A stretch of DNA of 64,000 bases from Marsupella aquatica (lineage: Eukaryota; Plantae; Marchantiophyta). Both the position numbers and the translations under genes were made by a program. Location of the stretch: the NCBI GenBank assembly GCA_973895155.1, contig OZ316899.1:2997455-3061454 (forward strand), read 5' to 3'. Within the stretch, counting starts at the first letter, position 1. Each line of letters opens with the position of its first letter. Of the stretch, positions 1 through 48,765 are shown piece after piece. The notes beneath the pieces were generated by a model, which worked only from the letters and a program-made list of their open reading frames with translations, was not told where the DNA came from and did not search any database.

Positions 1-553
1 TTGCAGATGCCGAACTTCCCTTGCGCTTCATCTCTTCAATACCTGAATACTCCCCAAGAATAGCTTCCTTAGTCCACTTCGCAGTGTGACCCTTCAATTC
101 TGAAAGTGGTTGCCCTGCGTTCTTGATTGCCTCCCTAATCCCCACGACCTTATTCTCCTGAATTAGCAATTTGTCAAGCTCCACACTGGTGGGTGTCCAC
201 GAGAACTTTTCCAACACCTCCTCCATATCTACAAATGCCGTTTTGTGAATTCCCCACAATCACTCCGCTCGTTCTCTAGCTACGCGCTCCGGCTCAACGT
301 CTTCATACGTAGGTATCAGCTGCCTTGCTTCTTCAAGCAAACAGCCCCAAAACTTCCCTGCCTGATTCACCGTGTTCATTCCACCGAATGCCAAGAACTT
401 GTGCAATCTCCCAATCCACCACATGCACTCAACTGACAGTCGCTCCTCAATGTCGAGACCGTGTACACGAGGATGCAAAATGGCAGAGTATTGGTCTCCT
501 CACTCTGAAGCCGCCACTTAGTGGTCTTTGTGATCAAGCATGGATTAGGTCAT
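1..553 (-). mobile_element. Element D, left part: decayed relative of unit C (N-terminal part of the LTR-borne accessory ORF), split by insertion A
   Basis: 1-553 aligns by eye to 20578-21138 of C (ttgcagatgccgaac...gtgatcaagc..gattaggtcataac). It encodes the same GGMNTVNQAGKFWGCLLEEARQLIPTYED motif, with frameshift damage upstream. Confidence 0.85.
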
Positions 554-558
554 AACTC

Positions 559-3500
559 TGTGATGCCTAGCCAGGAACCATTAGGCCAGTTTAAATAGTA
601 AAATCATGAGTGTACCCTAGGAAACACCTTAGTATAGTAACAAAAATAGGGAAATATAAACAATTAAGGGTGACTATGGAACCCAAGCCAAGGCCAAAAG
701 TAAGGACGCCGAGGGAGGGAACACGATTAGGGTTAGGGTGCGCTAAGTACCGGCGGCTATGGGTAACCAACGGGAAGGAAGACCAGCCAAGGGGGGGGGG
801 GGTAAGGACCGAGCGCAAGGAATGGCGGCTCATTTGCAAACACAAGCCAAGCGGACGACTACGGGAGGCCAACTACTGTCCGCTGCTCAGGCAAGCACTC
901 GAGGTGGAAGCAGATACCGACAATCAACTCAAGAAGGGTATGAGCAACGTCAATCAAGCTGCTCATTTTTGGGGATGCCTGTTAGAACGGGCAACTGAGT
1001 ACATTGGGACCTAGGAGGACGAAGAATCAGAGAGAGCAGTTTGAGAACGGCAGGAGCTCGCTCGGCTGTGGGAGCTGCAGAAGTCTGCTTTCTCAGGAGG
1101 AGAACTCATTACGACTGAATTCTTGTGGATGCCTACTGCCGACGAACTTGACGATCTTCTGTTTTGTGAGAACAGAATAGTCGGCATCCGGGAGGCCATC
1201 AACCGCTGCAACGACATACATTGGGAGTTGAAGGGTAGCACGGAGGGGTGGACAAAGGCAACCGTGCTAGGAGAAACATCCACGGCAGCCGCTATGAAGA
1301 GGAAAGGGAACAACAACAAAGAAGCCACCCCTGCGAAAAGAACAAGGTCGGCGGCACCCAGGAAACCAATAGAGCAGGGAAGCAGGAGGCAGGCAAAAGC
1401 CAAAGAGGAGGAGGTCAACCCCGTCAATGCCGTTCCAACAAGAGATGACACCTGGAAAGGCTGGGCGGCGACCCTCCCCGAGGAGGTGCAATTACACTTT
1501 GCACGGGAGGAGGATGCATGCTTTATGGCTATGCAGACTCGAAAATACCAAGGTTTTATGGCCGGATCCGGCTTGCAAGCCTTCGTAAAGTTACCATGGC
1601 TAAAGCCGGAGGTGCCGGATTCAAACTTACTAGAATTCGTGGGATCATGGGAGCCCAAGACCAATTCCACAAGGGTGTATGGGAAGGATTTCTATCTCAC
1701 TCCCCGGGTGATTGCCGAAGTGTTTGGCTTGCCGATGGGCAATAAGACCAAAGTAGATATGAGGAAGAACTTGCCAGACAGGGAGTTCCGATCATTTCCA
1801 GGGCCATCAACAAAGAATGGCTTCTTCCGAAACACCTGCACCAACCCGCACATAGGAGAAATGATTGATTTCTTGCGGGTAACCATGCATTGTAACTTGC
1901 CGAGGGCAGAGATCGGCAAGGCACGGGTCTATCTGGTGGAGAGGCCAGACCCAAGCCGAGACTACAACGGGTACCTCCTCACCCAACTAAAGAAGATCTT
2001 GAAGGAGGAACAACTGGTGATCGGCATGGGAAGCGTGTCCCGGCTTGGTTATCATATGCCGTTGTTGTGCCAGTATGCCCCAAGTCAGATATTCGCCCCT
2101 GTACTGCCCCTGCAGGCAAGAGCACCAGAGGAGGTTTCGGAACCGAGGCCGACAACAGAGAAACCGACCCAGCCCGATAGTCCTACAATCGAGCAGGTGT
2201 TTAGGCTGAGGAAGGAGGACTTGTCGATGCAGCAACCAGGCATGCAGAATCTGCTGAAATTGCTGGAGAAGGAAAGGAGAACGACAACGGCAACGGGACC
2301 GGTACAGAATACTGCTCCCGAAGTTGGCCTTAGCCAACTTACCAGGGAAAACCCCTTTACCGGGGTCAAGGAGAGAAGGAGGCAGGAACACGAGCCGAGA
2401 GTCCAAATGTATGTAGGAGCTTCAAGTCCCGAAGCCGAGAAAAAGCAGCCCGAGGCTCCTAATCCTGACAGGGAGAAGATGAGATCAACGTGGAAGCCAG
2501 AGAAACCAGGACCCGTGATCTCTGAGGCCGTGTTCACGGCAAGACCAGGACAGGAGCGAGGGGAGCTGGTAGTCCAAGCCGAGGAGGAGGCAGTAGAAGG
2601 CTACAACAATGATGACTCCGACTATGGGTCGGACCATCATGTTCCAGGAATAAGGACCTGTGGCAAGTTTATCCCCACTCTTCCAAGAGTAGTTCGAGGG
2701 GACCCAACCCAGCAGAGCAGCCCCGAGTCTCCCCCACCAGATGTCGCTCCCCCAAGCTTTGACGGCATAAAACAGACGGCACAAGAGTTTCAGGAATGAC
2801 TCAGGGAGGAAGAAGAGGCAGCCCTGGCTAGGGAGAAGCATTTACCAGGAGGAGAATGGCCAGAGGACATCAGGCGGCTTGCAGAAAAATGAAGCAGCCC
2901 GCCAGCCATGATAGAAGAAATTTGCAAGGCGGCTTGGGAACAAAGGCCACGGTGGATGATGCAGATGACTTCTACTCACTCCGCCTATGCTAAAGAACGA
3001 GCCATGGAGTACAAGGAGATGTGTGGCATCTTTGGGGAGGAGTTGGAGAAGGGACCTTTTTTCCAGAGGGAAATGTTGGAGAAGCGCCGATTAGAAGAAG
3101 CGGTGGCTTTGGAGAGAAGCAAGAAGGACAAGGTCATCCGTCGGCTTAGGGCAAGGGAAGCCAAGGTAGAAGACCTGAAGGCGGGCAAGAAAGCCCAAGA
3201 TGAGCTGCGGATTAAGCGGCATGAGCTCAACATCATGCAGGGGCAATTGGATACCGCGCAGTCTGATAATCAGATTATCAAGGATAAACTGACTCGGACC
3301 CAAGGTGAGCTGGCCGATTCGGTCAAGGAAAAGGAGAAGTGGAAGCGAGAGCTGAGAGACGCAGAGGAGGCCCACATAGCAGCCAACAATCGGGCCATGG
3401 TGGAAACTCAGAGAAGGGAAAGGTCGCTGAAGGGGGAACTCGAGGATATCTGCGGAGCCCTTGAGCAGAAGGAGGCTGAGTTAGGGAAATCCTATTAGGC

Positions 3501-5241
3501 AATTATCGTGCTGCGGCAGGAGCTTGCATCCATGACGGCCAGCTTCAAGGCCGACCTCCGCGAGAAAGACGACCAGCTCGACCAGACTTATGCCAAGATG
3601 AATAAAATGGAGTCTGAGGTCGTTACGGAGCTCGACAAGGAGCTGAGAGCAACCCAAGAGGAGAGGGCTACCTTAAAGGAGGAGTTGGAGGAAGCCCAGA
3701 AGGAGCGGGAGGAGGCACGCAAGGACCTGGACAAATTGCAGGAGGAGTTGGAGGAAAGCACGCGGAAGATGGAGAACTTACAGCGGCGAGCCGACAACCA
3801 AACGGAGCGGCTGAAGAAATAGGCCGCAGTATTTAAGTGCTTGGCTTCCTCAGGTCCAACTCCAATTGGGGCAACCAAGTTACCAGGAGTAGTACTGGCC
3901 GAAGGACAAGCCGAGACACTCGCACCGGTGCCGGAGGTAAGTGGCAAGGGGAAGGGGCCAACTGCCGAACCAAAGAAGAAGAAGAAGCGGAAACCTTTTG
4001 GGTCAGGGAGTAATACGGCGCCTCGAGCCGTTGTGAGCAAGGAGGTAAACCCAGCACCAACCTTAGGCAGGGTCACGGCAAAGGATCCAACTGCCCTAGA
4101 AGGCGGGGATGGCAAAGCCGAGGCCAAGATACTCGGTGATGAAGCCAGGATACCGGATCCACCACTAGAACATGTCGGGGAGGCCGTGGCCGATGCTGAG
4201 GCCAAAGCCGAGGGTGGACCCAGTCAGGCCGATAAAGAGTTGACTCGGTCTGGAGCAGGTAATCTGTCAGAGGACGGACCTACGGTAGTGGCTGCGGAGG
4301 AAGTGTTGGGGGCGTCCATTGAGGACCAGACACCGCTGCCATGACAGTGGTGGAGGGCCGTTCCTTTTAAGGAGGGCGGACGTGGAGGGAGGAGGCGTGA
4401 GTGGGCAGGGCGGGCTCAGATCTCCAAGTTTAGAATTAGGATCAGGACCAAGGGGCGGCCCTGACACTTAGCTTAGTGGGATTGCGGATCCACTAGTAAG
4501 AGCAACACTTGTGCTCCTGCCTCGCTGTACATAGGTAGATTACAGTTAGGGGTAGATTACAGTAGGGTAGATTAGGCTTACACTGCAAGGAATTAGGCGG
4601 ATCCACTACCAGGATAAGTACCTGGGCAGCGGGGAGTTGAGGGTCCTCTTCCTTAGCAAGTTTTTAGTGCACCAGCAGGGCTGGGATCAAGTAGTTAAAG
4701 AAGCTCTCGGTTAGTTCATGTTTCCTCATACCTAAGAGATGAATAGAGTTGGCCTCACGGCTTAGTTTGCAGATCTTGTATATGAGAAGTACTGTTTGTA
4801 TGGCAAGTGCATGGTATAACTCAGTCCGAAGGAGTCATTTTGCTATTTGTGTGTCGCATGAACTTGTTTGAAGATTGCCCACATCAACCAAGAAGGGAGA
4901 GTAAGCAAGGTAGTAAGAGTTGGATGTGTCGAGCTGAGAGAGGTCTTAGCGGCTTACCCAAGCCAGTTGGGGATCATTCCGGCGGTGGAATCCAAACATA
5001 CCTAAAGGGAAACCAAGAGAGGAGGACAAGGGAAGGCCTAGAATAGGTCGGCTACGTATCTCATGACCTGATGAAGGATCTGTCCAGTATATGTGAGTAA
5101 AATGTTAAATAGTAGTAGAAGGAAGTTAGCAGCGTCCCATGCCATTAAGCCGCAAAATCGGCCTCGCCAAGAGCAAAACTTGCGGGAATCGGCTTGTGCA
5201 GAGGGGTTTCTTGGGTTTAGGGAGCCATGGGACGCACCACA
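559..5241 (+). mobile_element. Unit A: 4683-bp solo-LTR-like element with an internal long ORF
   Basis: Starts TGTGATGC and ends GCACCACA (imperfect 8-bp inverted termini). Perfect 5-bp TSD AACTC at 554-558 and 5242-5246. Colinear with 58977-63632. No RT, integrase, PBS or PPT. Confidence 0.9.
676..4344 (+). pseudogene. LTR-borne accessory ORF of A (~1222 codons; PMD/plant-transposon-like domain, coiled coil, acidic tail); 5 in-frame stops, no frameshift
   Basis: ORF-track pieces 610-1014, 1123-2799, 2908-3498, 3508-3822 and 3841-4344 are all in one frame. Stops at 1012, 2797, 2890, 3496 and 3820. Homologous to the ORFs of B and C. Domain name is inferred from motif style (GLQAFVKLPW...LLEFVGSW...LTPRVIAEVFGLP). 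Confidence 0.85.
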
Positions 5242-5397: not shown

Positions 5398-7666
5398 TGT
5401 AACGCAAAATCCGGAAATGGATTAATTTCCGGGTCTACTACTAAATCCGGATTTAGATCCTAACCGGATCCGGAAATGCTAACTCTAGCTAACTAATCTG
5501 AAAATTGCTAAGCTACTGTGGAATCATCTTCTATCTCTACTCTAAATGGTTCACGTGCAATATCAACTGGACTAACTGGCTTCTAGGAAGGAGGTGTCCC
5601 TAAACTCGTAGTAGCCTCCAGGTCCTTCAAATCAAAGGGTGAGCCGCGTGCTGGGCTGATGGTCGAAGGTGACACTGACGGAAAGCGAAACTCAACCTTC
5701 TCAAATCCGGGTGGAGTGCCTTCTGGTTCGGTTTCATCTCGGAGCACCAGAGACGTTCCGGATTCCGGGATTTGGATTCTGGCAGGGGTCAACATGGACT
5801 TCGCATCCAAAATCGCTTTCTCCATTTGCTCAAATGCTCCCGTGATCTTCTTGGCAAAGCGGTTATTGCACTCAATAACCTTGGCAAGGGTGTCTGGTTT
5901 GGCTGTTGCCAAATACTTATCGATCAAGTTGGCTTCCAACAAGTCCATGGCCGGATCTGGAGATGGTCCTCCAACTTCTTCTGGGCCACATCCAACTGGT
6001 CTACCAAGGAATCAATCTTCCTTCTGTCCCTGTCTGCCTGGTCCTCCAAGTCCCAGATCTTCTTCTTGGCCTGACTTTTAATCACCATATCTAGAGTTGA
6101 AATGATGACAACCGGACTACAGTTGAGCATCTCAGGAACCTTCCCAACCAGATCCTCAAGCTGTTTAACCTTTCCGGTTGCACTCTCCACAAACGTCCGG
6201 ACATGTTCCAACTCTGCCAAGGCAGTCCACTTGGAACTGGGGGTAACACCCAAAAGACTCCCTCTACTTTCTGGTCTACAGACAGGTTTCGGATCTGCAA
6301 CTGGATCCGGTTCTAGACTTTGTACCAATCTCTTCTGGGTCCTGGGAGGTCGCACTTCCACAACTGGCTCTTCTTCTGATTTAGTCCCCTCTGATTGTTG
6401 CCGGTCCGGATCTCCTAGCTGAGCCAACATTACTTGATTCTCATACTCCTCCGCTTCTTCATCTGTAAGTATCCGGTCCATCGAGTAAAGATTGGCCAGA
6501 TAGCAAGAAAGGGATGTGGGGGTCTTCAAATGAAGATTCCGGACCTCCTTGGCTATAACTTCCTCCAAAACTTTGGCCCAGGAAATCTTCTTCTCTCTTA
6601 TGTAAGAAGCAGCGATCGTGTTCCCAATCCGGATTGTAACCCGTTGAGGCTTGGCAGGGGAGAGAATTGGTAGCAGAAAAGACACAACGTCAAAAAACTC
6701 CTCATTACGGCACGGGACACCTTCCATCCATCTTTCGGATCGACTTCTCCATCAAAGTAGTTATTAGCAAAGTTGTTCTTAGAGGTCAAAAGGCCTTCTC
6801 CCTCCAAAGGCACATCCAAAAGCGACGACATAATTGCCGCGGTCCACTTTTCCGGTTTGGCTCTAATCGAATCCAGAAATTCCGGAATTAGAGTGGAACG
6901 GTTCCGGACCTCCTTGATGAATATGGCGCTCTGGTAACCCCAGGGGAACTCCATCAACTTTGCGCATCCCATGGCCTCAAGGTTCTTCTGTAAACGATCC
7001 CTTCTCTCTTGATCTGAAGGTATCTTCGGTCGCAATGGCTTCTCGTTAACAATTATTGTTCGCTCTTTTGTAGACCTCTTTGGTAAGGTCCGGATTTTGG
7101 ATTTTCCCGGGGAGAAATCCGGATTCTCTCTCTTCACCATGATGAGCAATGGAGATAAAGAAAACAAATTCCAAACCCTAGTGAAATTCCAGAATTCCTA
7201 TCATGAGTCTCAAATCCGGAACTCAGAAGCTGCGTCTTCTCTTCCCCACTCAAGCAAACGATCACCACTTCCCCCATCACCAACTTCCTCACGACTAATG
7301 CCTTGAATCGGCAGCCTCGTCCGGCTCTAGACTCTCCTGTAGTTTCTTGCAAGAGATTTCAACAGCAGTTCGGTGGTGTGAGGAATGCCCGGTCTATAGT
7401 GGCCTTAAGAACTCGGTCACCAACTTTTGGTATCCGTCCGGATGTTAAACTTATGGTTTTAGTCGTCATTCCCATACGCCTCCTCTCGCGGTGCAATTGT
7501 ACCGGTATTTGCAAGACGTTCCGAAAAGAGTGGTATCCGGATATTTCCGGATTTTGTACTGAAAACTAGACTTTGTAGTCATTTCTAGGTTTATTATACT
7601 TCATTAGCCCAGTAATGAGCAATTTATTTTTTAAATTCACTTTTATTGTAACCCAAGTTAACTAGA
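5398..7666. mobile_element. Element F: fragment of an LTR-type element starting TGTAAC, with a minus-strand accessory ORF and 16 TCCGGA sites
   Basis: Homology to C/D stops abruptly at TGTAACGC (5398). The other end is cut at the presumed start of E. Confidence 0.6.
5583..7167 (-). pseudogene. Frameshifted accessory ORF of F (PMD-like domain and short coiled coil)
   Basis: Overlapping pieces 6598-7167, 5924-6727 and 5583-5948 read as one protein. Motifs MGCAKLMEFPW, IRAKPEKWT, YFDGEVDPKDGWKVS and ISWAKV parallel the ORF at 56688-58976. Confidence 0.75.
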
Positions 7667-7762
7667 TGTGACATCGCCGGTACGGTGGCTAATAAATGAT
7701 TTGGCCTAACCACGCTTAGCATGCGCAGTAGAGGTATCTTAGGCCGTAATTATTAGCATAAC

Positions 7763-16230: not shown

Positions 16231-19200
16231 TTGGAGAGAACCATCTGGGATACGGAAGTAGGGTTACCAAAACAAGAGGAAAATGAAGAAATGCCAGTAG
16301 AGGTTGATATAGCAGTTAATAGCTTGGATAGATTGATTACTCATTTAAGTAATCCTATAGAATTTAGGATAAAAGATTGCCCCTGGCACTACTCGGTAGG
16401 GTCCATAAATCTGGACAGAGCAAATATTCCTTTTTCTTCATTTGTATTACATGTTAGTAAAGTAGATGTGGCTGAAGTATACTCAAAACAAATCTTGAAA
16501 GGGACAAGTTGTAAGAAACACAGGAGATGTCCTGAGAATTTAATGATAATTGGATATTGGGTTGGGGCAAGAACTATTTTCATAGAAAAAAGAATCCCTA
16601 GGCTCACACCAGTAATTCCTTGTATCAGAAATGAAGAAACCGGGGAGTTAGGGGTATTAATGGGTATTGAACATGATGGGCGTGGCACGGTTCCCAAGAC
16701 CTCTAACACCGAGAACTACCCTCAACCGATCATAAACCACTTGGTTATGTCGGTCCTCTTTCCTTACGGCAGCTATTCAGCTTGGAAACGCGATACTCTC
16801 CTTGGGTCCACACTTACCGGACCGATTCTTTCACTGGGCTTGTGAATTGTGCACAACTGAGACACCTAATTCCTCTTTAACTTCTTCAGGTATATTTGTA
16901 TTCCGCCCCCGGAATGTACCTCTATGGCTTAATTTCTTAAGCCGGCTGACGGTCTTTTTCAGACTGACTCAACCCACACTTCACCGACTAACACTCTCAA
17001 TCCTCACTGTTCTCTCAGAGTTTGATTTGGGCAGTCTCCAATCAAGGCAATGCGATTGTATTTTGCTCAATAGTTCACCCTATCTGACTTTAATCGATCA
17101 AGCAACAGATATCATAACACTCAACTTCTTGGATGGCAAGAATCTGTGAACTATGCAACGAAGCCAACTCAATTCAAACAATTGCTCAGAAATCCAAGGG
17201 AACTGGTGGTTTACTGATACCCTCCGGTCTAGATTTAGCCGAGAGCTTCCTGTGTTTACAACAATACAGATTAACACTAAAGCCTTGACTAAGAAAAAGC
17301 CCCTGAAACCACGCTGCCCAGGTTTTTATCCTTGCAGCGCTTTCAAAAAAAACAACAGAGATCCTAACCACCACACATGGCCTTCCACCGCGATAATCCT
17401 AAAAAAAAACTATCACCTAAAAACTTGAATGGCCCGGAACCCTGTGTGAACCGAGCATCTACTACTATCTAAGCCAACAGGGCGCTACTTGCCCTGTCCC
17501 ATCCTACAACGGCCGCGCCCTTCTGGCCCAAGCCCTTCTCCTGTCGCCACGTCCTCCTTCCAACCAATGACTGGCCCTCCTTAATTGTCAGATGACCGGG
17601 GGTAAGTCTGAATCTTCCGACTCTGCACCTTCTCCTGCCATCGGCCCCGGCCCGACCCCTTCGGCTTCTGTTTTGCCGGCCCCGGCATCGGTCTCGACAT
17701 CGGCATCTGCATCTGCATCTGCATCCGCATCCTCCTGGGAAACGGCTTGGAGAGCCTTTGCCTTAACTTCCTCAATCCAAGCCTTTTCCCCGATGCGCTC
17801 GGTCTCGATAACCCACGGTTTCACGTTCTGTGTGTCCATAGAAGCAGTACCATCATCTAAACCTGTTACCGCAGCTCCAAGTTGATCCGCAGTACTTACC
17901 TCTACCACCGCTGCCTTCAGGGCCACAGTACCACAAATGTGAGCAGCCATGCTCTCGACTTCCTCCGGAGTGGCTTTAAGGGTTTTAACTTTATTATCGC
18001 CTGGCCCCATGAACGTCTTTGCCAAGTCTGCCACCAACTGCATGGCTTTGCCCCCAGTCACACTTGACAACAGAGAGCTTGGCTTCGGCTTCGGCTTCAC
18101 TATATTTCCGCCTACCATACTACTGTCGGGAAGCCTTTCAGTTGGTGACCCATATCCCGCTTCGGCATACTTCTTCAATTTCTGCGTTTGATTGTCGGCA
18201 TGCCTCTGCAGCCCGATCATCTTATCCTTGGCATCCTCCAATTCTTGAGATACATCTTCAACTTCATCGTTAAGCCGTAGTATCTCGGCCTTGGCCGTCT
18301 TCAACTCCTCATTTAAGATCTGCACGATCTCCAACTCTTGCTTATCTACGGCTGCTTTCAAGGAGTCGTTGATACCTTCCAGTTTTGTGACCTTGTTTGT
18401 CCATGCCTGCTTTGTCCTGGTTAGCTCCTCCTGAAGCTCCTTGCGTATCTGTTGAACCCGGTTTAGGTGATCATTGGCCGCCGTGCACATGGCGTCATCA
18501 TGCTTTTCACGCATGGTCTCCAACCGGTCAAGTAACTTATCATACTTCCTTTGGGCTTCTACCAAGGCCTTTTTGCTCTGGGTGGCCTGCTCCTTAGCTG
18601 TCTTTCTGAGCCTCTCAACTTGGCGATTTAAACCCTGTACCTCTACTTTTGAATCGGCTAACTCTAGCTCTATCTTCGTCAACTTTTCCTTGATCTGCTG
18701 GTTATCCAATTGGTAGTTTTCCAATTGGTTGTTTGCCACGTCCAATTCCTGCTGCCTAGCCAAGAGATCCTGCTGAGTTGGTTGAGCAGACTTCATCTTA
18801 GCAACTTTGGCCTCCATGGAGCGAAGCCGAGGGATTACTTCCTCCTTCTTCAATCGCTCCAATGTCATTGCCTCCTCCAGTCTCGTTTGATCAGCCATTT
18901 CTTTTCTAAGAAATGGCCCGGATTCCAACTCGTTGCCAAAGATTTCTAAGGCTAAGAGTCCACACATGTCTCCATACTCCTTAGCCCGATTTCTTGCATA
19001 GTTTGACCTCCCAGGTAATACTGGCATCTGCCATCGAGGTCGTCTCTCCCAAGCTTCAGCCCGTAATTGGTCAAAGTTAGTGAGAGGTTCGGCTTGCCTC
19101 TCACTAAGCCGTCTTATTCCTTCTGGCCACTCACCTCCTGGTAGCTGGCATTCGTGTTCTGCATTCCGGGCCCCCCACTCCTTAATCTTCTCATGTAGCC

Positions 19201-21475
19201 CGGCTTCAGCTTCCTTCATCTTGTCGAATTCCAATGGCGTCACATCTGGTGGAGGAGATTCTGGCATTTTCTGGTCCTCCAGTTTGCCATAGAAGACCGC
19301 GGGAAGTCTTCTACAAAACCTTCCCATCGTTCTAACTCCTGGGACCGGCCTCTCCCCATGATCGACATAGTCATCGTCGTAATCATCCACATTGACCTGA
19401 CTACCTAACATGCCGGCCTCTCCTCCAAAGCCCCCAATCTCCTCCTCTGAAAATTGTTGGGCTGCAGCTGGTTGACCTTCCACCACGGATCCGTTCACTT
19501 GGGCTCTGTTAGAAGCTTTTACAACCGGCCTCTCCTGGCCTCGGCTTACCTCCTCGTCTGTCTCCGAATCCATTCGCTCGTCATATTTCTTTCTCTCTTC
19601 GGGAGTCATCTTCCTCTCGACCAACTGGATGCCTGCATATGGATTATTGCGAGTAGGCTGGCGTAACGGATTTCTCACTACATCATATGTTACTACCTCT
19701 GGCTCCTTGATAGGGGAATGCTCCCGTTCTCGTGTTGCCTGTGTTGCCGACCTCCTCCCATGGCGTCGTATGTTTAGAGACTCCTTGTCCTCCTCCACTT
19801 CCTCAAGTGGTGCAGTGATCTGCATCCGCTCCTGTATAGGCAACACTGGTGCAAAAGACTGGCTTCTTGCATAACGGCAAAGCAATTGCAGATGGTACCC
19901 TAGTCTAGATACCGCTCCCTCCCCAATGCTCTGCTTCTCTTCGTTTAATGCCTTCTTTAACTGCATTAAGAGATAGTCGTTGTAGTCTCGGCTTGCATCG
20001 ATATTCTCTACCAAAAATACCTGGGCTTTGCCGATTTCTGCTCTCGGCAAGGTACAATGCAATGTGACTCTCAGGAAATCAATCAACTGCCCTATATGTG
20101 GGTTGGTACATTGATTCCTAAAAAACCCATTCTTAGTGGAAGGCCCTGGAAATGACCTGAACTGGTCGTCCGGCAACGTCTTCCTCTGCTCCACCTTTGT
20201 TTTCCTTCCTGTTGGTAAAGCAAACACGGCTTCGATAAGCGCAGGAGTTAATTCGAACACCTTTCCATACAACAGCGTTGTGTTGGAAGAAGCCTCCCAG
20301 CATCCCACGAAGTCCAACAGATCCTCATCCGGTATGTCTACCATTCTCCAGGGCAACCTGACAAAGCCCTCCAACCCAGTGTCATTCATATATCCTGCAT
20401 ATTTGTTATCCTGAACGGCACTGAAGACCTCATCCTCATCTCTTGCGAACTGTAATTATAAATCGGCAGGTAACCTGTTTGCCCACCCTATCATGTTTTT
20501 ATCTTCTACAGCCCGATCTCTAATTGGCCCGGATTCCATCTTGATTGGTCTCTCCAACCTAGTTCGCTTTGCTGGAGTTGCAGATGCCGAACCTCCCTTG
20601 CGCTTCATCTCTTCAGTGCCTGAATACTCCCCAAGAATAGCTGCCTTTGTCCACTTTGCAGTGTGACCCTTCAATTCCCAAAGTGGTTGCCCGGCGTTCT
20701 TGATTGCCTCCCTGATCCCCACGACCTTATTCTCCCGAATTAGCAATTCGTCAAGCTCCGCACTGGTGGGTGTCCATGAGAACTTTTCCAATACCTCCTC
20801 CGTATCTATGAATGCCGATTTGTGAATTCCCCACAATTGCGCAAGCTCTGCTCGTTCTCTGGCTGCGCGCTCCGGCTCAACGTCTTCATACGTAGGTATC
20901 AGCTGCCTTGCTTCTTCAAGCAAACAGCCCCAAAACTTCCCTGCCTGATTCACTGTGTTCATTCCACCGAATGCCAAGAACCTGCGCAATTTCTCAAACC
21001 ACCTCCCCCGTTCGATCGGCAGCGGATTCGCTAGGTTGATCGAACAAGCAATTGCACTAGTGTACAGAGTGTCGGTCCCCTCCTTACGAAGCCGCCTCCT
21101 GATGGCTTGTGTGATCAAGCCCTGATTAGGTCATAACCCTAATCGCGACCGTTGGATCAGATCCCATCACAATTTCCCCCGAACATATTGAAATCGGCTT
21201 CAATCTTTATAACTCCCTAATTATATCTACCTAATCTTTATTTAGCCATTATTTTAGGCTTAACTAAGTACTTCGTGATCCTGGCACGGCATCACAATGG
21301 GGGAGAAAAAAATAATTGGGACCCATTCAACTTATTAGAGTTAAGTAAAAGATATTCAGGTGTGCATATCAAATGTAGTCAAGAAGTATATCACAATCAA
21401 CATTGGAAAGAACTAGAAGAACAAGCTTTCGATGAGCTAAGCAACGGTTTAGGGTTAAACCATTGGAGGAAATGA
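16231..21475 (+). CDS. H extra ORF downstream of INT (~207 aa; 16231-16680 joined to 21302-21475), split by unit C; unknown function
   Basis: Removing C and one TSD joins ...LMGIEHDG to GEKNNWDPF... in frame. The ORF-track start is TTG; the first ATG is at 16291. Confidence 0.6.
16681..21296 (-). mobile_element. Unit C: 4616-bp solo-LTR-like element with an internal long ORF
   Basis: Perfect TSD ATGGG at 16676-16680 and 21297-21301. Minus-strand ends TGTGATGCCGTGCCAGG...GGGAACCGTGCCACG (A: TGTGATGCCTAGCCAGG...GGGACGCACCACA). Confidence 0.9.
17588..21118 (-). pseudogene. LTR-borne accessory ORF of C (1176 codons, one internal TAA at 20456-20458)
   Basis: The 220-aa and 933-aa ORFs share one frame with 22 sense codons between them. 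Homologous to A/B (FPGPSTKNGFF.N.CTNPHIG, LPRAEIGKA, VPG.RT.G.F, PESPPPDV.P, ADNQT..LKK). Confidence 0.88.
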
Positions 21476-21514
21476 GAGAAAACAGTTAGAAGACAAGGGA
21501 TACTAGTTGATGCA

Positions 21515-24500
21515 GTGTGCTTACCAGAGCGACTGGTAAGCAAGGCCCGACACAAGAACCAGAGAAGAAGACCGAAGCAGGAACGGCCGCCAAGACAGCA
21601 AGACGACAATCTAGTAGCAGGTGGAGCAAGTAGAACGACTATGTTGTCCGATCAAGCCAGGGAAGAAAGAAGAAAAACTCGTTACAATCCTATTAACGAC
21701 CATAGCAGTGAGGGAGAGAAAGACGAAATGGAACCGGAGAAAGAATCAAGACTGGAGACAATGTCCATTACGACGGTGGGGTTTATCAGGTCAAAGGCGC
21801 ATCAGGAGTTTGTGAAGACACAGTCTTTGACGGAATTCATCAACCTGGATTGGGAGATCACTCGGTATAAAGATCATGACATTGAGGGTTTCATTTTAAG
21901 TTGGAATGAGCAAAAGAACGAAGGCAGATTCCTGAATCAGATCGTCAACACTAGTTACCAGACTGTGATGGCTGCTTTTGGATTGGACAAAGGTGGAGCA
22001 AAAATCACCAGGAGGGTTGCAGCTACATATGAGTCGAAGCACTTTCATGAGAGTTATTGTAAGCCGGAAGGATCAGGATTCATGATGAATCAATGTACAT
22101 CGAATGTGGTTAGACAGAGAGCGGAGTTCATTAGTCATGCAATGATGTGGAAGAAACCAAGAAACGAGTGTTCCAGGTACATTATCAAATTAGTGGAGGA
22201 TTGCGAGGAAGGAAGAAAGAATTGGAGTACGTTATTTTACGAGAGTTTGCGCAAGGCGTTAGTAAGAGCCAAAGATCATTTGAGGAGTTATGAAGACAAC
22301 ATTACACTGGAGGTGGGAACGCACACGAGAATATTGTTGCATCATTGTCTAACTACTGGGGGAAGATCGAGGAAGCCAACTGAGTCAACAACCAAACGCT
22401 ATCAACTGAGGGGGAAGAAACAGAGTAAAAGAGCCCGAATAGAAACGGAGTTGGTGGGAATCAAAGAGTCAGGGGAGAAAGATTCAAGTCCAAGACTTGG
22501 AAGTGAGGAAGGACCCGAAGTGGACACAGGAGATATCAGTAACAACCATCAAGAACCAGAGGCGACGAAAGAAGAAATTGAAATTACTCAGGCAAAACTC
22601 AGGGAACGAGAAGATGAGGAGGACAAGGGTAGTGATCAGCACATGGAAGTGAACCAAGATACCAATGGAGGAAAGTTGGGAGATGACATGATCAGGAAGG
22701 AAGAAACCAGTGAAGGAATGGTTCTAGAAATGCTTGCACCAGAACGGACGGACGTAACTACCAAAGTGAATAGTACTAGGGCGGGGATTCATTCTAAATC
22801 CACAATGGGAGTCACAGCTCCAACTCCACCGCGAATGACAAACACCGAGCTGGAAATGTTTTCAAATCTCAGCAGAGAGGAAATCAAGCGAAGACTCAAC
22901 CGAATCATCACAGACAAGGAGCAGACCTCCAAAAAGGGAACCAAGCAAGTAGGTCCAATGCTGAGGAAAACTGAAACTATCACTCCACCAATTCCGGGAA
23001 GAACACAAAGTCAAGAAGGTATCCCTGATACAGTACCCATTTCTAAAAAGAGAGGGGTAGATCAAGTCATATTGCTGAATGAACTTCTAGGGTCTGTTAT
23101 GAAGTACCATAATAGTGGATTAGCAAAACAAGAGGTTGCAACAAATCGATGGATTTTGCAATTGAAGGATCAGGCCAAAAGCAAGCTAGAGGGGGTATTA
23201 TTTGATGTCACAAATGTCACATTTCAAATACCATAGAGGATGGTACTTGAAATGTACAAGGACCAAAAAGGACCATGGAAGGGCTCAGATGTATTTGAAT
23301 GGATGGCCAAGATTAGACAAGCATTACTGTGTAGCCCAAGAAGTAAAGGTGATGATTTCCTTGGTGTTGCCCTTCACTACCCACAGCCGACATTGTCACT
23401 TAAGGTACTAAGCTTAAGTAGTACTTTCTTGGAATTCAAATACCTCATAACTCGTGTTGACCCTATGGTTTGAACTCTATGCAAGTTCCCAAGTCCATTG
23501 TACATGGCGCGTTAGGTTGTGAGTCCTTCTACAAACATCGTTACGTGTCATATACTCGTGGACGCACTACACCTGTAAGTTTTTCTTAATCTTGAGTAAG
23601 TTTTTCTTGAGGGAAACAAGTTGCCCCGACATTGCGATGCAGAAATTTGGTGGTACTCACGGATGCACTATACCAAGTAAGTTTTTCTTGCGAGAAACAA
23701 GCCCAAACATTGCGTATGTTGCAGAAATTTAGTGGTACTCACAGACGCACTATACTTGTAAGTTTTTCTTGCAAGAAACAAGCCCAGACATTGAGAGAAA
23801 CAAGCGCGGACATCGCGTTGCAGAACTTTTGTGTTACCTTGTCCTTTTCGTGTTCGACATTCACCTTCTTTTGCTCCTGTTTGGAGCTTCAATGTTGCGT
23901 TTTGCGTCGCATTGCCATGCATTGTGGTCTAAGGGATATTAAGGACTGTAAACATATGACCTCGTAGCGAATGTTCCTTACTCTGCGACAGGAAGCTGCG
24001 GCATTACTCTGCGGCATTACTCTACGTTTAGACCTTCATTACTCTGTGGCATTACTCTGTGTTTAGGAGAACAAACATTGTAGCTCAAGGGCGGTTGAAG
24101 TAGGGTGAATCTCTACCCTCACACATGATCTCATGGTGTTAACCCAACATCATGAGTAGTGTTTGGGATGAAGCAGCGAAAGCCAAAAGAGACCGACAAA
24201 ATTTTAAGAGAAGAGAGCGTAGGGCAGGGCAAGCAGTGAATGCAGTAAGAACACATGCCAAAGAAACGTTACAAGATGCTCAGGGGCAGGCAGAGAAGCT
24301 GGTGATTCAGGAGGCTGCCATAGAGGCCGAGAAGTTGCTTGCTAAGGCTAGACACAAGGCTGCAATAGAGGTAGAGCAGTTGATTGCTCAAGCTAGACAC
24401 AAGGCTACCATAGAGGCGGAGAAGCTGCTTGTTCAGGCTGGACGAGAGGCTGCAATAGAGGCAGAGAAGCTGCTTGCTAATGCAAGAGAGCAGGCTGACA

Positions 24501-27500
24501 ACTTCAAGGATGAAATTCGGCTACAATTGGCTGGGGAGTTTGCAACTTTGGAATACCAAATTCATGACTTGCAAAATCAAACTATTGATTTGGAGTCCAG
24601 GTTGAGATCAGCGGAGGAGTGCAGTGCAAATGATCAGTCTTTTGGAGATGCAACAGGGGTGGCAACTCAAGAGGCTATGCGTGCATCAGTTAGAAGGAGA
24701 CAACAGAAGTCTCGTTTGAGGAAGCGGTGTCTACTTGGTGAGGTAATCGAGAATTATGATGCCTCTGATATCCCAAACAGAAGTGTCCGTAGCCAGACCC
24801 AAGTTGTCACTGGGATGGTAAAGCACTTTTCCGAATTAACGAGACGACATAATTTTGCTGCTAAGAAGATCATCATGGAACATTTCTGGACTCATAAGGG
24901 AATGGTTCAATTGCACCCCACTTCACTAGGCTGCCCTAAAGCGGATCTGTCATGGAGTACAGCTATCGATGATATAAAGAACACTTTGAAAACAGTCAAG
25001 TATGCAAGGCGTAAAGATCATAAAGCAGCCAAAGATATTCTACTATCTTCTTTTATAGGTCCCAAGATTGTGGATGCAAGATACCAATCTTCTCTTGCTC
25101 GAGCATTGTGTATCAAAAGAGCATCTGTGTATGCTGCTAGTAAGAAAAGAATTCTGCTAGATGGTGATGCAACACTGCGTTTTCCAATGGGTCAGCGAAA
25201 GGAAAGGAGTGATTGCCTTTCTCTGGAGATTCGAGGTGATGTTGCGTGGTTCTGGGAGGCGCTTACCAGGCCTGATCCAGGCAAGAAGGATTTTGTAAGA
25301 AAAAGGATTGCAAAGAATGAATATGTGGAGCACAGGACTCACCGCCTTGAGGATACTGAGGTAATTGCTAATTATGTAGTAGTGCATCTCATTTCTAATC
25401 GTGTAGTAAGTCTGCAAGTGTAGTAGTGCAAGTCTGTAATCAATATTGGTTTATTTTGTGCACTACTCATTTTGTTCACTTATGTTGCACATGGTGACAG
25501 GCAGAGTACTTTTTCAAGTTCCAGGAATGGCTGAAGAAAGAACATAAAGCTTACACTATCGGTTTGCGATCTTTTCAAGCCCTCAAACCTTACTTCATAC
25601 GTACAATGAAAGATAGGGATGTCTGCTGTTGTAAGCAACATGTTGAGATGCACCTACTTTGCAAAGCCTTTGCCAAGCAACGACAAGCTCAACATCCTGT
25701 GGGTTGCACATGTCAATGTGTAGTTTGTTCCCCTATAATTGTTGCTGGAGTGAGTCATAGTATTGATGGTAGTGTTGTCGACGGTACTTGCAGTACCACT
25801 ACTCATGTGAGTCTGAATAGTTATGATGAACCCTGCAAAGCTCACAAGTATACACAATGCTCTGTGAGAGAGTGGTGCGCACAGACCTTATGTAAGAAAG
25901 GAGAGGATGATCTTTGGCACAAGAGGAACTGTTTACTAGGTAGTTGTGAGATCTGTGGGCCAGGGTTGTTAGAGTTGTGTCCGTGGGAGGAAAGAGTGGA
26001 TGAAGAGGATGAGTTTGTGGTGTGGCAAACATATGAGTATGTTAACCTGGATGATTTACCAAAGCCAAAGAGTGCCAAAAAGAAGAAATTCCAGAATCGT
26101 GATGATGCAGAGATTTCCAAGGTTAGAAAGAGGCTTAGATTAGTAACTAAAGTCACCTCAATGGTGGTGTTTATGGAAAAAGTAACAGCTACTATAGAAA
26201 CGTTTATAAACATGACTTCTATGCTAGATGGCAAGCTGAGCAGTACCAGAATTGTCTCAAGTCCTTTCCTAAAGGCACCATAGTGAGTTCGATTGACTTT
26301 GCAGAGAACTACACGTTTGCAACGCAAGATGAGGTACAATCCCTTCACTGGGATAATAGACAGGTCACTATTCTTGTTCTGATCACCTACCGGCACCAGT
26401 ATGACAAGGAGGAGGAGGATCCTGTGGTGTACAACAAAATGGGCCAGAGGATCACCAGATTTATTGAGGCTGATTACCACTTCTTTATTTCAGATGACAA
26501 TAGCCATGATACCTTCTTTGTGCAACACAACTTGGATTTCCATTGGAAGTGGATGAAAGAGAAAGAGATTTTTGTAGACAATCACATTATGTGGTCAGAC
26601 GGGTGTGCAGCACAGTTTAAAGCTTGCCACCCTTTTTCCTATGTGGCAAAATACAATCATGACTATGGGGTCCCACTAATGTGGTGTTTCCATGCCTCGG
26701 GGCATGGGAAAGGTGTACAAGTAATTACTTGCCAGGCCCTTTTTTTGCTTCATTGTCTATAGTATGTAATAGTGTTACATTTTTACGTGCTGATTTATGC
26801 GATAGCTTTGAAGTTTTTAGCGTGCAGGATTTGATGCATTTTTGTTGTATGCTTGCTTCCACAGGATGGACTAGGACCTGGGGTGAAGCAAGCTCTTCGA
26901 AAGGAGCAGTTGCGGAAAGAAGGAGGGCATCCAATGGAGGGTGCCAAGGATGTGGTCAAGTTTCTTAAGGAAAGGTTTTGCCTAGGAAAGCAAATGGAGT
27001 ATGACAAGAAGCAGGGTGTGAGGCGTTTTTTCTGGGAGGTCGGTGTGCAAGAGGTGGAGCGGAGTTCAGGCCTAGAATGTTTGCCTATCAAAGGTGTGAG
27101 ACAAAAGCATTGCTTTTGGGGATATAGCCCTGACAATCCCATGATGCTGAAATGTAGACAGTTGGCTTGCTTCTGCATCAACTATGCACTTCATCCAGAA
27201 AGTCAAGAACTCTGTGAAAATCAGGCTCATGTTCTACCGTGGGAGGTAGATTATGTGTACCCCAAAAATGCTGGAGAGATTGCATCCATTATTGAAGACA
27301 TGGGTGGCGGGTTGGATAGTGAGACCTATGATTACGAGGGCTACATTGGTGATCTAGTTGAAGTGGGTGACTATTTTGCTGTGAAGGCTGAAGAAGACAA
27401 CATTTGGAAAGCAAAATTCTACGTTCTTTTGTGTACAAAAAGGGCTCATGTTGTTGAAAATGATTTCATAGACGACTATTCTGCTGAATTTTATAAGGGC

Positions 27501-30500
27501 GATCGAGTTTTGGCAGGCACTTGGTTTCAGCAATATGGCAGGCATCCGACTTGCTTTGTTCGTAACGACAAATCTAGCATTAGCTATTGCCGATGTGGCA
27601 TCCGTGATTCACATAAAATTTGGACTTGTGCCAACAAAAATACTGAGGGGATCACCAGGGTTCAAGCTTGCCCCTAACACTTATCAAGCAATTTTGGATT
27701 CAGCGAACAGGTAATTTTCTTTCACTGCCAATATTTATCTGTTTATTGAAGACACTAAAGACACTCATTGGAAGAGAATAGTTACATTGGGTAGATTGTT
27801 GGTTGTGCTGGTTTAATTCTAATTGCAACTTTATTGACTGCAGAGGAAATCCGAGTGTGGTTGAATTGAACCTGTACTCCTAAAGTTCTAGGTAAGCAAA
27901 TTAAAAGCGCAGATGCTAATGTTTTATGAGGTGGTCGTCCTCACTTGATGTTGGTCCCTCAATCTCAAAACTCTGTGAAAAGGCACTTTGTGACATTCTT
28001 GTACACTGATTCATGTCTTTGACCAATCTAGTTTATTGTGTGCAGGTGTTCAATTTGATGACTGCGCAATGCACATGGCCCATGATTCTCAGTGGCAAGT
28101 AAACTTGCAACTCCTCCTTACCGAATACTAGTTCTTCTTTGTAATACCTATTGCTAATACTTGTAATATTTATTTGCTAATACTTAATGCCTTTTCTAGT
28201 ACCTACTTGATAATAAATACTCATAGTACCTAGTACATAATACTTAGTCAAGTATTAAATACCTTAAGTACCAGTACTGGTTACATATGTACCAAGTACT
28301 CAGTACCATAAGTACGCAGTACCAACTTAAGTACCTTAAGTACCAAATACTCAGTACTTTGAGTACCTAGTACTCAATACATAATACAAAGTACCTAAGT
28401 AAGTACCTAGTACTCAGTACCTTAAGTACATAGTACCTTGAGTACATAGTACCAAGTACCATAAGTACCCAGTACTCAGTACCTTAAGTACCCAGTACTC
28501 AGTACCTTAAGTACTCAGTACCTTAAGTACCCAGTACTCAGTACCTTAAGTACCTAGTACTCAGTACCCTGAGTATCAAGTACTTAGTACCTTGAGTACC
28601 TAGTACTTAATACCGAGCTCAATACGTTGAGTACCTGGTACTCAAGACCTGGCTTTAGTACTCAGTACTTGCAGTCCGACCCAATACTCAATACTATAGC
28701 CTAGGCTAATAGTTTTATACAGTTGAGTGTTTGATGTAGTGGGTGTTGTGAGACTAGTAGCTATATTGCAAAAGCAAGCCACTGATACATTTTTAACTGC
28801 TGGACCTGTCTCTTTTTTCATGCAGGTGATATAATGAGTCTCTCTTTGTTGCCTAGAGGCACGACAATCACTACCCTTGTTTGGCTAGATATGGATATAA
28901 TTTATCATAAATTTTAGTCATGTGAGTTGTGGCTAGCAAATTAGCTAGTTGAGTAGTGGCCACAGGACCATTGTGTCTTCGTTCAGCAGCATTTTGTGAT
29001 CATGCTTCTGTTTCAGAATAAGCTTGAAACGCAATTTGAACCTTGTCTATCAAATCTATAAAAGTTCTCATCAAATGCCAATGGATGTCCATATTCTTCT
29101 CTGTTGCCTTCCTGGACCTCTGGTGCAACTTTAATTATCTCAATTCGGTGATCACCTTAGTCTGTTCCTCCTGTTCGGTGTAGTGCCTTAGTTCCCAGAA
29201 CTTTGCAAAGGGAAGCAAATTTTAGCTCTCAACCTCCATCCAGATCTTATTTTACCCCCATGCATGTTATAGCATACTGTTACTTTTCCTAAATTAAGCA
29301 TTCGTCCATTCATGGACCCAGGTTATTCACAGTTCATGTTGTCTTTTGAGATCTGCCTTAGTTTGATTTCTTTATTTCAATCATCAAAGGAGGAGCATGA
29401 TTGTTTCACAGTACCAGTATGTACACTCATTCAGTTTTTTCCTGAGTGTACATACTGAGATCACTATGAGCATCAATGGCATTTTCTATTCCAAGGCAAA
29501 TGATTGTTATGAAGGGTTCACTTTCTAAGGTTTCTCACAATAACTAATTGCGCTAACATCTACATTATGATCCAAACAACAACCTGGATATAGGTCGAAA
29601 GCTTGGCATTGTTGAAGGCCAACATTTTGGACTATAAACAAAAATTAAACTCATTCATTGTTTCTTCATAAACACGAGTCACAAACACTCGCTCAGTTTA
29701 TTTACAGTGCAAGTCCTGTTGCTTTCAATAGTAAATGCAATACCATGCGGATTACAAAATTGACTGTAACAAATCCATGTAATCCATTGAACTGTTTGGC
29801 CTGTAGAATTCAGTTCACTTTTCCGCGATTAAAAAAACTACTCTAGCAATTGTCAAGTAGGCAACTCTATTTCTCTATAGTTTCCAATACATCAAGATTT
29901 GTACAAAATGAGACATCTTGTAGTCACTCAATTTATTTATGCAAGCTAGACTTTAGCTTTGTACAGTAAATCAAGTACTCACAAGATACAAGATTGATTG
30001 ATTGTAACTAATCCAAGCAGAGACAGAAAGAACCACACTAAACTGTTGGGGCCTGTAGAAAATCCTGGCCACAAAATCCGTATGCAAAAACACTACTGCA
30101 AAAATTGCAGCTCTATATATGTCTCTACAATTCCCAAAACATTCTCCTCAGATCACCTCATTCCTAATCTAAACCTTGATGGCGAAGTGCGGCTAAAATA
30201 CCCTCCAATTGGTCCAAAAGGACAGATCCTCTTGGTACGAGGGATCGTTCCACATTGGTGGACCTTGGGTGGGATCTAGAAACTGTCATAGTGAGAGGCC
30301 AGGGGACCCAACTATGGGTAGGAACCCCAAGGAGAGACAAAATTTCCACTGATAGTACCCCATCTTTTGCAGCCAAGGCCACTGAGCACCTTTGACACTG
30401 CAAGGCAACAGCCCGGATGTAGTCCATCTGCTCCTGTTCGGTGCAAGCTCGTAGGTCTGAAGCTCCTAGCCCCAACCAGACTGAAGCGCTATCCCGAATC

Positions 30501-37909: not shown

Positions 37910-38291
37910 ATAACGATAGTATTTAGGTAGCCATTATGAGTAGGAAATAATTAGTCAATAAGGGGCGTTCGTGTTTGGGCTGGCGGCGGGTTGCCATTCA
38001 CACGCCCGGGTTGCAAGCGTGTAATGGGCCCTCCCCTTTCCCCCTCGGGTCCGTATAACGAACTTTGGGAGGCGGCCACTGACATGCGCTGACCCGGACT
38101 GGCGGAGTGGCCAGTACACTACAAGCGTGAAAGGCTCGGCCTATAAGCAATGAGGAGGCGACGGGCGATCAACGAGCTCTCAGGGTATAAAAAGGGGGCC
38201 AATCCTTTGCAGTGCACCAGTTCTTCAGTCCACGCGGCAGCTTCGACCCTAGTTCTCTCGCTTATCTTTAGTCGCCTTCCATCTCCTCTAA

Positions 38292-41195: not shown

Positions 41196-42083
41196 CGAAG
41201 GGTTAGGCTTAGAATAGACTTAGGAGTAGCTAAAATAGGCTGGTAGGACAAGTGTCGGCCAGAAGATAGCGGCGCTGACACATTAGCCAGCCTGTGTAGA
41301 ATAGGTTAGACTAATAGGACAAGCAGGCACCAGCTTAGCAAGGATATAAGTTAGCATAGATTCGAGCACGAGTCCAAGCCGGTCCTCAGCCCTTAGTATT
41401 TAGCGGCCCCCCAGTAGAGGTTACGGGAGGGGGATTTTAGACTCAGAGGTTGGCCATTCGTAGTACGCGCGGGGAGTCCCGAACTTGGTGAAGTGCCGGA
41501 GTACCAAGGGGAGGGTATACGACTAAGCTTGTTGGGCGAGTGCGGAGCCGGGCTCCGTTGTAGTGTATACTCCTCGGCCTTGGGCCCGTTCATTCACAAG
41601 GTGTCGGGTCAACCAATCGTAAAGTGTATGATCATAAATGAATGAAATCCTTTCCCCTTAATTCCTTTGTGTAAATCGAGATTTTTGTTATGTATGAATA
41701 CATGTATGAGTCTTGTGTGCAAGTATCAACGCCGGGCCAAACACGTTATGCCAACCGTGCACGGGGTGCCCAATACGGGTACGGGGTTGCGAGCCCGGGT
41801 TGAGCCCTTGTACTAATGGATCCGGATTGAAGGCGGTAACACAAAGGCTTAGAAGTTCATGAGCCAGGGTCGACCCCGTGTCGACTAAGGTACGTTCTGG
41901 CGATGGAACACAAACTATACCTAGGAGGTGTCTGTACATAATAGTAAGCGCACTTAGCGCTAGTTTACGTGAGTTAGGAGCATTTTGTGCGTCCCTCCCT
42001 GCCCGAACCCTCATATTTACGAAGGATGTGCCTGTCTAAGCCAAAGCCTGGGTTAATGCCTAGGCTGACGACGTGACATAGCC

Positions 42084-42109
42084 TTTTTTTTGGCGCTAGA
42101 TGGAAGGGG
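42084..42109 (+). promoter_or_regulatory. E primer-binding site
   Basis: T-run plus TGGCGCTAGATGGAAGGGG, 5 bp after the ...GTGACA end and ~100 bp before gag. Confidence 0.7.
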
Positions 42110-48464: not shown

Positions 48465-48476
48465 TGGTATCAGAGC
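48465..48476 (+). promoter_or_regulatory. I primer-binding site (tRNA-iMet)
   Basis: TGGTATCAGAGC exact match. Confidence 0.92.
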
Positions 48477-48765
48477 GATTGCTGGCATAGACACCGAGCT
48501 GGGGTTGTGCTAAGTCGGAATCCAAAAATCTTAGCGGATTTTTGAGGGGACTTAGTGCTTCAACGTGCCCGGCGGGTCGACTGCGGGCAGATTCGGTCGC
48601 TGGGAACATGGCTAAAAACACTCAATCAAAGAGTGGCAAACAGGCTCCCCCACCAAGGGGAGAACCCAAGTCCAAGATGAACAGAAGGAGGACGGGTTGA
48701 CTTCCTTAGACAAACGTTTTAAGTAGGACAAAGAAGACGCAACAGCCAAACCGTCGACCGCTACG

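Follow-up and report, generated by a model that had tools for sequence, protein, structure and literature searches.

Probable solo long terminal repeats that enclose a whole accessory gene, with a predicted VANC/PMD-like core, in a nest of Gypsy elements of Marsupella aquatica

The stretch analysed here, 64,000 nucleotides of Marsupella aquatica contig OZ316899.1 (positions 2,997,455 to 3,061,454, forward strand; hereafter the window), is a nest of Ty3/gypsy (Gypsy) elements in which self-comparison revealed four related units, A to D. These units are probably solo long terminal repeats (LTRs) of a non-chromovirus Ty3/gypsy family, the LTR of which would measure about 4.6 kb and contain a whole accessory gene. 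This reading is favoured because a homologous unit in a sister element, E2, directly precedes a site resembling a primer-binding site (PBS) and gag-pol, and because it shares a block of the non-coding tail with the units. The four units, with their target-site duplications (TSDs) and open reading frames (ORFs), extend as follows.

559 to 5241, plus strand: unit A, 4683 bp, TGTGATGCC..CACCACA, TSD AACTC in both flanks; likely a solo LTR; inserted in unit D
58977 to 63632, plus strand: unit B, 4656 bp, ends as in A, no TSD; adjoins an ORF of element G that belongs to the same domain family and runs on the minus strand
16681 to 21296, minus strand: unit C, 4616 bp, start TGTGATGCC, end GCCACG (not CA), TSD CCCAT; lies within element E1, between pol and the accessory ORF
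1 to 558, minus strand: part of unit D, C subfamily; leader and N-terminal domain with one stop; continues beyond the window edge at 1
5242 to about 5390, minus strand: remainder of unit D, the 5' leader beyond A; an element starting at 5398 has taken the place of about 10 terminal bases

An earlier reading of this DNA, made from its letters alone (the sequence-only reading), had described three complete units of about 4.6 kb and a partial one, perfect 5-bp TSDs at A and C, and a strong divergence of C from A and B, all of which agrees with the present delimitation; it gave ..CCAC(A) ends for the units, and C ends in CG. DNA identity within the window amounts to 82-83% between A and B, 85% between D and C and 70% between A and C, the latter over the core only. 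The boundaries of A are real, since contigs from four of four public sequencing runs (two coded organisms, two studies) join 553 directly to 5242, representing the empty site in D-family copies without A, and since in the bin that follows 5241 the depth of the family in the contigs is 15- to 17-fold lower, and three bases further on, among mixed flanks, it is near zero. In each run, the number of distinct contigs that map to A is between 8,359 and 26,017; although these counts are not copy numbers, the A family is, on their account, highly repeated and diverse. The absent TSD at B may be due to a deletion or to recombination between different copies. In the 3' flank of B, positions 63633-63660 comprise a T-run followed by GAAGG and vaguely resemble a decayed PBS; on the opposite strand, the same bases could instead continue the ORF of G after a short deletion.

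Within A, B and C neither a direct repeat of more than 17 bp nor a long inverted repeat was found; the longest direct repeats measure 13-17 bp and none is terminal, which refutes the earlier alternative of a non-autonomous element with short LTRs nested at its ends. The unit ends themselves form imperfect inverted repeats of about 10 bp (8 of 10 in A). An inspection of the flanks that shows both a PBS and a polypurine tract (PPT) in E1 found neither of them next to A, B or C. Together with the Pfam scan of the unit ORFs given below, this is in line with the earlier statement that the units have no reverse transcriptase (RT), integrase, PBS or PPT.

The E2 unit, of about 4.3 kb, is likely an LTR that contains an ORF, starts at 7667 with TGTGA, as in A to C, and has been split by E1. 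The parts of E2 are the following.

7667 to 7762, plus strand: likely 5' start of the E2 LTR, TGTGACATCG, which agrees with the inverted E2 end in 8 of 10 bases; separated from the remainder by E1; boundary inferred
37910 to 42078, plus strand: likely remainder of the E2 LTR, with TATAAAA near 38186 and an 883-bp tail ending in GTGACA
38322-41195, plus strand: E2 accessory ORF, broken; N-terminal domain, core and coiled coil
42079 to 42108, plus strand: putative PBS-like site of E2, a T-run followed by TGGCGCTAG, 12 bases past the LTR end
42217 to 46985, plus strand: broken gag-pol of E2: gag with a zinc knuckle, protease, RT, RNase H and the first part of integrase, which element E3 interrupts near 47000

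Leader, ORF, tail, PBS-like site and gag-pol of E2 thus follow one another in a single orientation, and because a PBS follows the 5' LTR, the ORF would lie inside the LTR. The E2 ORF matches the core of C at 31% identity (E 6e-20). A profile of the A, B and C tails finds, apart from these tails themselves, one best site in the window, at 41886-41923 of E2 and on the same strand (E 0.057 in the window, 0.005 in a control set of five regions), and its score was reached by none of 300 shuffles of the E2 tail; from this block to the unit end there are 162 bases in E2 and 213-244 in A to C. A to D and E2 therefore have in common the ORF, the layout, the 5' pentamer and the tail block. A reversed LTR orientation with an antisense ORF, prompted by telo-box-like motifs in the leader, is less likely, as the E2 tail match occurs in sense only (z 2.6-4.1 versus -0.3-0.7). 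Separately, an AT-rich stretch at 40241-40517 breaks the E2 ORF; it has intron-like GT..AG ends and poly-T tracts and is in frame with both sides, and the gene in the E2 LTR might undergo splicing.

E2 might also be a composite of a short true LTR, equivalent to the tail of about 0.9 kb, and a foreign upstream ORF, in which case A to D would be internally deleted elements or recombinants that keep the ORF and one short LTR. The tail is indeed the best-conserved non-coding part of the units and the part in common with E2, the 5' end of E2 is inferred, and B has no TSD. However, the perfect TSDs of A and C enclose the entire 4.6 kb, no copy of the tail occurs at the 5' end of any unit, no TG start with a PPT is present at the border between ORF and tail, no end of pol lies upstream of the E2 ORF, and the layout is identical in two diverged subfamilies. 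We consider a composite origin very improbable.

For the coding LTR, the full element probably reads LTR-PBS-gag-pol-PPT-LTR, and the LTR was probably enlarged by absorbing an accessory ORF that in relatives such as E1 is internal and adjacent to the 3' LTR. If the plus-strand priming site shifted, the ORF would come to lie in the LTR, and the change may have run in either direction. Copies with gag-pol would then hold two copies of the gene, and the 4.6-kb LTRs would recombine readily and leave solo units, each between a single pair of TSD copies as seen for A and C, in which candidate promoter, ORF and tail would be retained. The two features of E1 concerned are these.

7763 to 37909, plus strand: E1, with 1868-bp LTRs that are 97.2% identical, TSD ATAAC, PBS, PPT and gag-pol
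21476-23236 and 35138 to about 36028, plus strand: E1 accessory ORF, in internal 3' position between pol and the 3' LTR; ends 12 bases before the 3' LTR; split by nested insertions

Several observations weigh against an origin of the units as LTRs. All three complete units are without an internal region, no pair of A to D units surrounds gag-pol in the window, and the contig flanks at the 3' end of A show no dominant PBS (agreement 0.36-0.45). As the 3' LTR of E2 lies beyond the window, the status of the E2 unit as an LTR is drawn from the position of the PBS and from inferred ends; moreover, E2 belongs to a different family, with a protein only 31% identical to that of the units and placed in a separate clade. 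Direct similarity between the N-terminal domains of E2 and A to D is weak, 2-22 of 300 shuffles reaching it, and this domain connects the two chiefly via the database proteins P0012 and P0034.

In part, these observations would also suit self-contained single-gene units which derive from a coding LTR and now depend for copying and insertion on a helper Gypsy element that supplies RT and integrase: all three complete units are solo, the contigs mapping to A number in the thousands in each run, no PBS-dominated flank is seen in the contigs, and the tail is strongly conserved. Such units, however, would need to be primed for reverse transcription, and A to C offer no PBS, PPT or terminal direct repeat for it, while the homologous E2 unit of the window does precede a PBS-like site and gag-pol. 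In addition, large LTRs are expected to yield many solo copies anyway. Mobilisation by a helper thus appears unlikely, and of the two options left by the sequence-only reading, a giant coding LTR or a self-contained unit, the former is preferred on the evidence of ORF, tail block, PBS-like site and gag-pol in E2.

The coding and non-coding parts of the units are listed here with A as the reference.

940 to 4344, plus strand: ORF of A from a conserved Met, 1134 codons, six internal stops
about 940-1290, plus strand: N-terminal helical domain
about 1492-2121, plus strand: predicted VANC/PMD-like core
between core and mid block, plus strand: variable linker
about 2631-3180, plus strand: conserved mid block
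about 3181-3830, plus strand: coiled coil
after the coiled coil, plus strand: low-complexity C-terminus with a KKKKKRK run
59353-62720, plus strand: ORF of B, one frame change near 61071-61113, no internal stop
20962-17588, minus strand: ORF of C, 1124 codons, one stop (20458)
655 to 660, plus strand: TATAAA, a candidate promoter of the ORF, at aligned positions in the A, B and C leaders (21211-21206 in C)
4345 to 5241, plus strand: non-coding tail of A, 897 bp, homologous to the C tail; a block of about 40 bp at about 4970-5006 is also found in the E2 LTR end

The ORF of the units is a real gene of the element that evolved under purifying selection. Between A and B, the ratio of non-synonymous to synonymous divergence (dN/dS) is 0.27 (confidence interval 0.23-0.33, 1201 codons; Nei-Gojobori method, stop codons dropped), with 0.17 in the N-terminal domain, 0.11 in the core, 0.23 in both mid block and coiled coil and 0.49 in the C-terminus. 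The 105 in-frame codons of the leader before the Met common to all copies (A 940, B 59353, C 20962) give 0.79 (0.49-1.45), and the corresponding values for C and D are 0.24 after and 0.97 before that Met; the method disregards transition bias, for which the near-neutral leader serves as an internal control. Between A and C synonymous sites are saturated, yet the core is 66% identical. The selection acted in active lineages, and a present function of the solo copies does not follow from it. Since the leader is near neutral, the protein is taken to start at the shared Met and to comprise 1,124-1,134 residues, or 72-73% of the unit. The earlier figure of about 1200 residues had included the leader and is corrected; the earlier share of the unit was about 75%. 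Likewise, A has six internal stops rather than five (1012, 1042, 2797, 2890, 3496 and 3820), whereas the single frameshift of B and the single stop of C had been recognised correctly. The stops at 3496 and 3820 are private to A, since nearly all mapped contig depth has another base there (among the matches listed, 40 of 911).

The non-coding tail is 91% identical between A and B, with a divergence of 0.10 versus 0.47 at synonymous sites, and the tails of A and C are homologous (z 40); such conservation is as expected of cis elements. The TATAAA of A, B and C is separated from the 5' end by 86-97 bases and in A stands directly upstream of an unused first ATG, a position that would fit a transcript starting downstream of it. 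The ORF could thereby be placed in a very long R/U5 with one promoter at the 5' end; alternatively, it may lie in U3, with a second promoter in the tail. The shared tail block has a consensus hairpin of six pairs, one of them compensatory. As a structured RNA it was rejected, single-sequence folding being no better than that of shuffles (z 0.76 to -1.77), and it is taken as a sequence motif only. Rfam gave no match in the window.

Pfam models, including those of RT, integrase, PMD (PF10536) and DUF1985 (PF09331), do not reach their cut-off in any of five unit ORF pieces, and none of 37 scanned homologues reaches the cut-off of PMD or DUF1985, though four of the 37 show a sub-threshold Transposase_32. 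A profile of the five cores in the window detects 84 proteins at E <=0.001 among 1.84 billion representatives, six of which also possess the N-terminal domain. Identity to the core of C is at most 37% among 46 aligned homologues, and Calypogeia proteins make up three of ten clusters examined for the ORF core. Conversely, with a profile built from outside homologues alone, all five cores (A, B, C, E1 and E2) are matched at E 1e-40 to 1e-51. A sequence search with a 955-residue piece of C had no match among 7,994 candidates of 525-1,672 residues; none of 18 pattern matches in viral contigs and none of 100 metagenome contigs was confirmed as a related locus, and a collection scan with the tail motif had no match. 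In a tree of the core domain, calculated by a quick method from 48 rows (partial matches of <130 residues and seven near-duplicate cluster members excluded), A to C, E1 and E2 fall in three clades; as its deep forks are not resolved, no order of events is derived from it.

The fold of the core is predicted to be VANC/PMD/MAIN-like. Its 213-residue model has a mean predicted local distance difference test score (pLDDT) of 93.6, and in an exhaustive structural search of 48,161 chains it was matched to VANC21 at Z 8.0 (root-mean-square deviation (rmsd) 4.0, 196 of 213 residues, 7% identity), with one other chain at Z >=2 (Z 2.2). A language-model search of the ESM Atlas separately lists clusters of DUF1985 (0.91) and PMD (0.90). 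DUF1985 is a domain of VANC (Hosaka et al. 2017, PMC5735166, in part; here and below, 'in part' denotes a source available in part), and VANC and MAIN are structurally homologous (PMC13547354, in part). In a viral fold library the best hit had E 0.008 and an rmsd of 20 and was rejected. The N-terminal domain is confidently modelled as helical (pLDDT 86) and has no Foldseek match in the PDB and no usable match in the ESM Atlas. The long coiled coil and the basic runs of the ORF would fit a dimeric nuclear protein. Of the checks proposed by the sequence-only reading, dN/dS gave a ratio far below 1, and Foldseek gave VANC21 as the one row with a template-modelling (TM) score near 0.5; that reading had overlooked E2, the known class of accessory ORFs in non-chromovirus Gypsy elements and the predicted fold.

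The closest fold of the core being that of a DNA-transposon protein, the units might be non-autonomous DNA transposons without long inverted repeats that carry a VANC-like accessory gene, as in VANDAL, the TG..CA ends being coincidental or due to a Ginger-type transposase. A weak DDE_Tnp_4 match in three of the 37 homologues and the imperfect inverted repeats at the ends point in this direction. Mutator-like elements, however, generate a 9-bp TSD and Ginger elements possess long terminal inverted repeats, while the TSD here is 5 bp and no terminal inverted repeat extends beyond about 10 bp; furthermore, the homologous ORFs of the window sit in two Gypsy elements, and the tail block is in common with the PBS-flanked end of E2. 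We regard a DNA transposon as extremely unlikely.

The accessory gene of the coding LTR is predicted to encode a nuclear regulator that binds DNA and combines a VANC/PMD-like core with a coiled coil. Tentatively, we suggest that the protein might bind the LTR DNA of its own family and oppose silencing or raise transcription, as VANC does in VANDAL transposons. That every solo LTR would act by itself as the transcription unit of a VANC-like protein which recognises the LTRs of its own family, so that LTR-LTR recombination would multiply a counter-defence gene, is a more doubtful extension and rather unlikely to hold in full. Both the fold and the function face contrary points. Foldseek with the core gives nothing at E 0.001, the VANC21 row concerned (bound to DNA) having E 1.1 and TM 0.50; Z 8.0 is borderline on the scale of the tool, on which Z 7-8 is common, though gap and coverage are large; and a sequence profile does not find VANC21. 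Arrays of short motifs of the VANC type were not seen, as in the five non-coding sets compared no 6-8-mer other than homopolymers was enriched relative to 200 shuffles. Finally, in MAIN the same fold acts in host silencing (PMC5418596, in part).

It is already known that non-chromovirus Gypsy elements can carry accessory ORFs of this fold family, and LTRs of about 5 kb are known as well. In the OTA superclade (Athila/Tat) of these elements, the extra ORFs (eORFs) include PMD (PF10536) in Ogre, Transposase_28 in Retand and ORF-1 of Athila (Neumann et al. 2019, PMC6317226, in part; Vicient and Casacuberta 2020, PMC7264820), PMD being the commonest named eORF domain of Ogre (PMC6317226, in part). 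As far as these sources describe them in the parts available, the OTA elements resemble the present ones in a conserved accessory ORF, a 5-bp TSD, LTRs described to about 5 kb and a proposed nuclear or regulatory role, and the accessory ORF of E1 has the classical internal 3' position. In contrast, the described OTA eORFs are internal, upstream or downstream of gag-pol and often antisense, whereas here, according to the layout of E2, the ORF is in sense, upstream of the PBS and inside the LTR; in addition, there is no Pfam match at cut-off, and E1 and E2 are without the extra RNase H. The available part of the Neumann survey is silent on whether any eORF lay within an LTR, and it tabulates Tekay eORFs on both the 5' and the 3' side, which might include LTR-borne ones (PMC6317226, in part).

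Similarly, the unit protein shares with VANC21 and VANC6 of Arabidopsis VANDAL (PDB 9LNJ and 9LNK; PMC5735166, in part) the predicted core fold and the role of a transposon-encoded accessory protein, and with VANC21 a coiled coil (for VANC21 according to PMC13547354, in part). VANC, however, belongs to Mutator-like DNA transposons of eudicots, as far as these partial sources extend, while the unit protein is only 7% identical, is accompanied by no target-motif arrays that were found, and has a predicted activity only. The fold family further links the units to MAIN/MAIL1 and the Gypsy PMD-A clades via the published similarity of VANC and MAIN (Ikeda et al. 2017, PMC5418596, in part), where Gypsy-encoded PMD clades are described and an anti-silencing use of transposon-borne PMDs is speculated on. 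In the available part, that survey concerns angiosperms and reports no LTR position, and the unit ORFs have no sequence match to PF10536. With regard to other elements that are likewise without pol and need a helper, TRIM, LARD and TR-GAG differ from A to C by two terminal repeats with PBS and PPT, as described in sources available in part.

Coding sequence in retroviral LTRs is represented by sag of mouse mammary tumour virus and by the nef overlap; these genes are much shorter and encode unrelated proteins, whereas here the ORF takes up 73% of a 4.6-kb LTR. For an accessory gene inside a plant LTR, no precedent was found in the literature on ORFs of plant LTRs and extra ORFs, most subscription literature being outside this scope. 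Lying in the LTR, the gene would be present twice per element and would outlast the loss of gag-pol. The role of extra ORFs in plant Gypsy elements is an open question (PMC7264820), to which the predicted link to the VANC21 fold might add a testable function. The VANC/PMD-like fold, if correctly predicted, would extend to a liverwort-like lineage, which bears on whether PMD genes passed from Gypsy elements to their hosts or in the opposite direction, a question not decided in the available part of PMC5418596. If the LTR gene does act against silencing, LTR-LTR recombination, the main route by which the host deletes retrotransposons, would spread a counter-defence gene rather than remove it, and the VANC/PMD fold would have served transposons since before the flowering plants. 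In practical terms, genome annotation will turn such solo LTRs into thousands of orphan host genes, and the elements may escape LTR finders that apply the usual length limits.

The nearest relatives of the E1 integrase are a Calypogeia fissa polyprotein (70%) and Riccia polyproteins (47-49%), which, with the Calypogeia clusters matched by the ORF core, points to a liverwort as the likely host. An extra, archaeal-type RNase H was not seen in the pol of E1 or E2; since Marchantia Tat Z1/Z2 are likewise without it (PMC10508981, in part), both may still belong to Tat. The nesting is deep: A lies in D and F at the 5' end of D; E2 probably sits in F, and its LTR holds E1, which in turn contains C; E3 interrupts the E2 integrase, and B adjoins the ORF of G. 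Elements F (5398-7666, minus strand) and G (56688-58976, minus strand) also have ORFs of this kind, though more distant ones, that of G being matched by the core profile at E 6e-10 and that of F judged by eye; the F ORF ends about 530 bases before a ..TTACA end, and F may be another, smaller coding LTR. E3, at about 47000-53100, is a Gypsy element truncated at about 53100; it comprises a Met-type PBS (48465), gag, protease, RT and integrase and looks chromovirus-like by eye. The insertions that split the E1 accessory ORF, about 12 kb at 23250-35100, are probably remains of DNA transposons and include tandem arrays (23595-23793, 24312-24487, 28289-28614 and 30906-31256) and two ORFs without Pfam match (24143-25423, plus strand; 32980-34239, minus strand). 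Finally, an AT-rich stretch begins abruptly at about 53100, and a 413-codon ORF at 54153-55394 (minus strand), which has no Pfam match, resembles, by eye only, the C-terminal part of a transposase.

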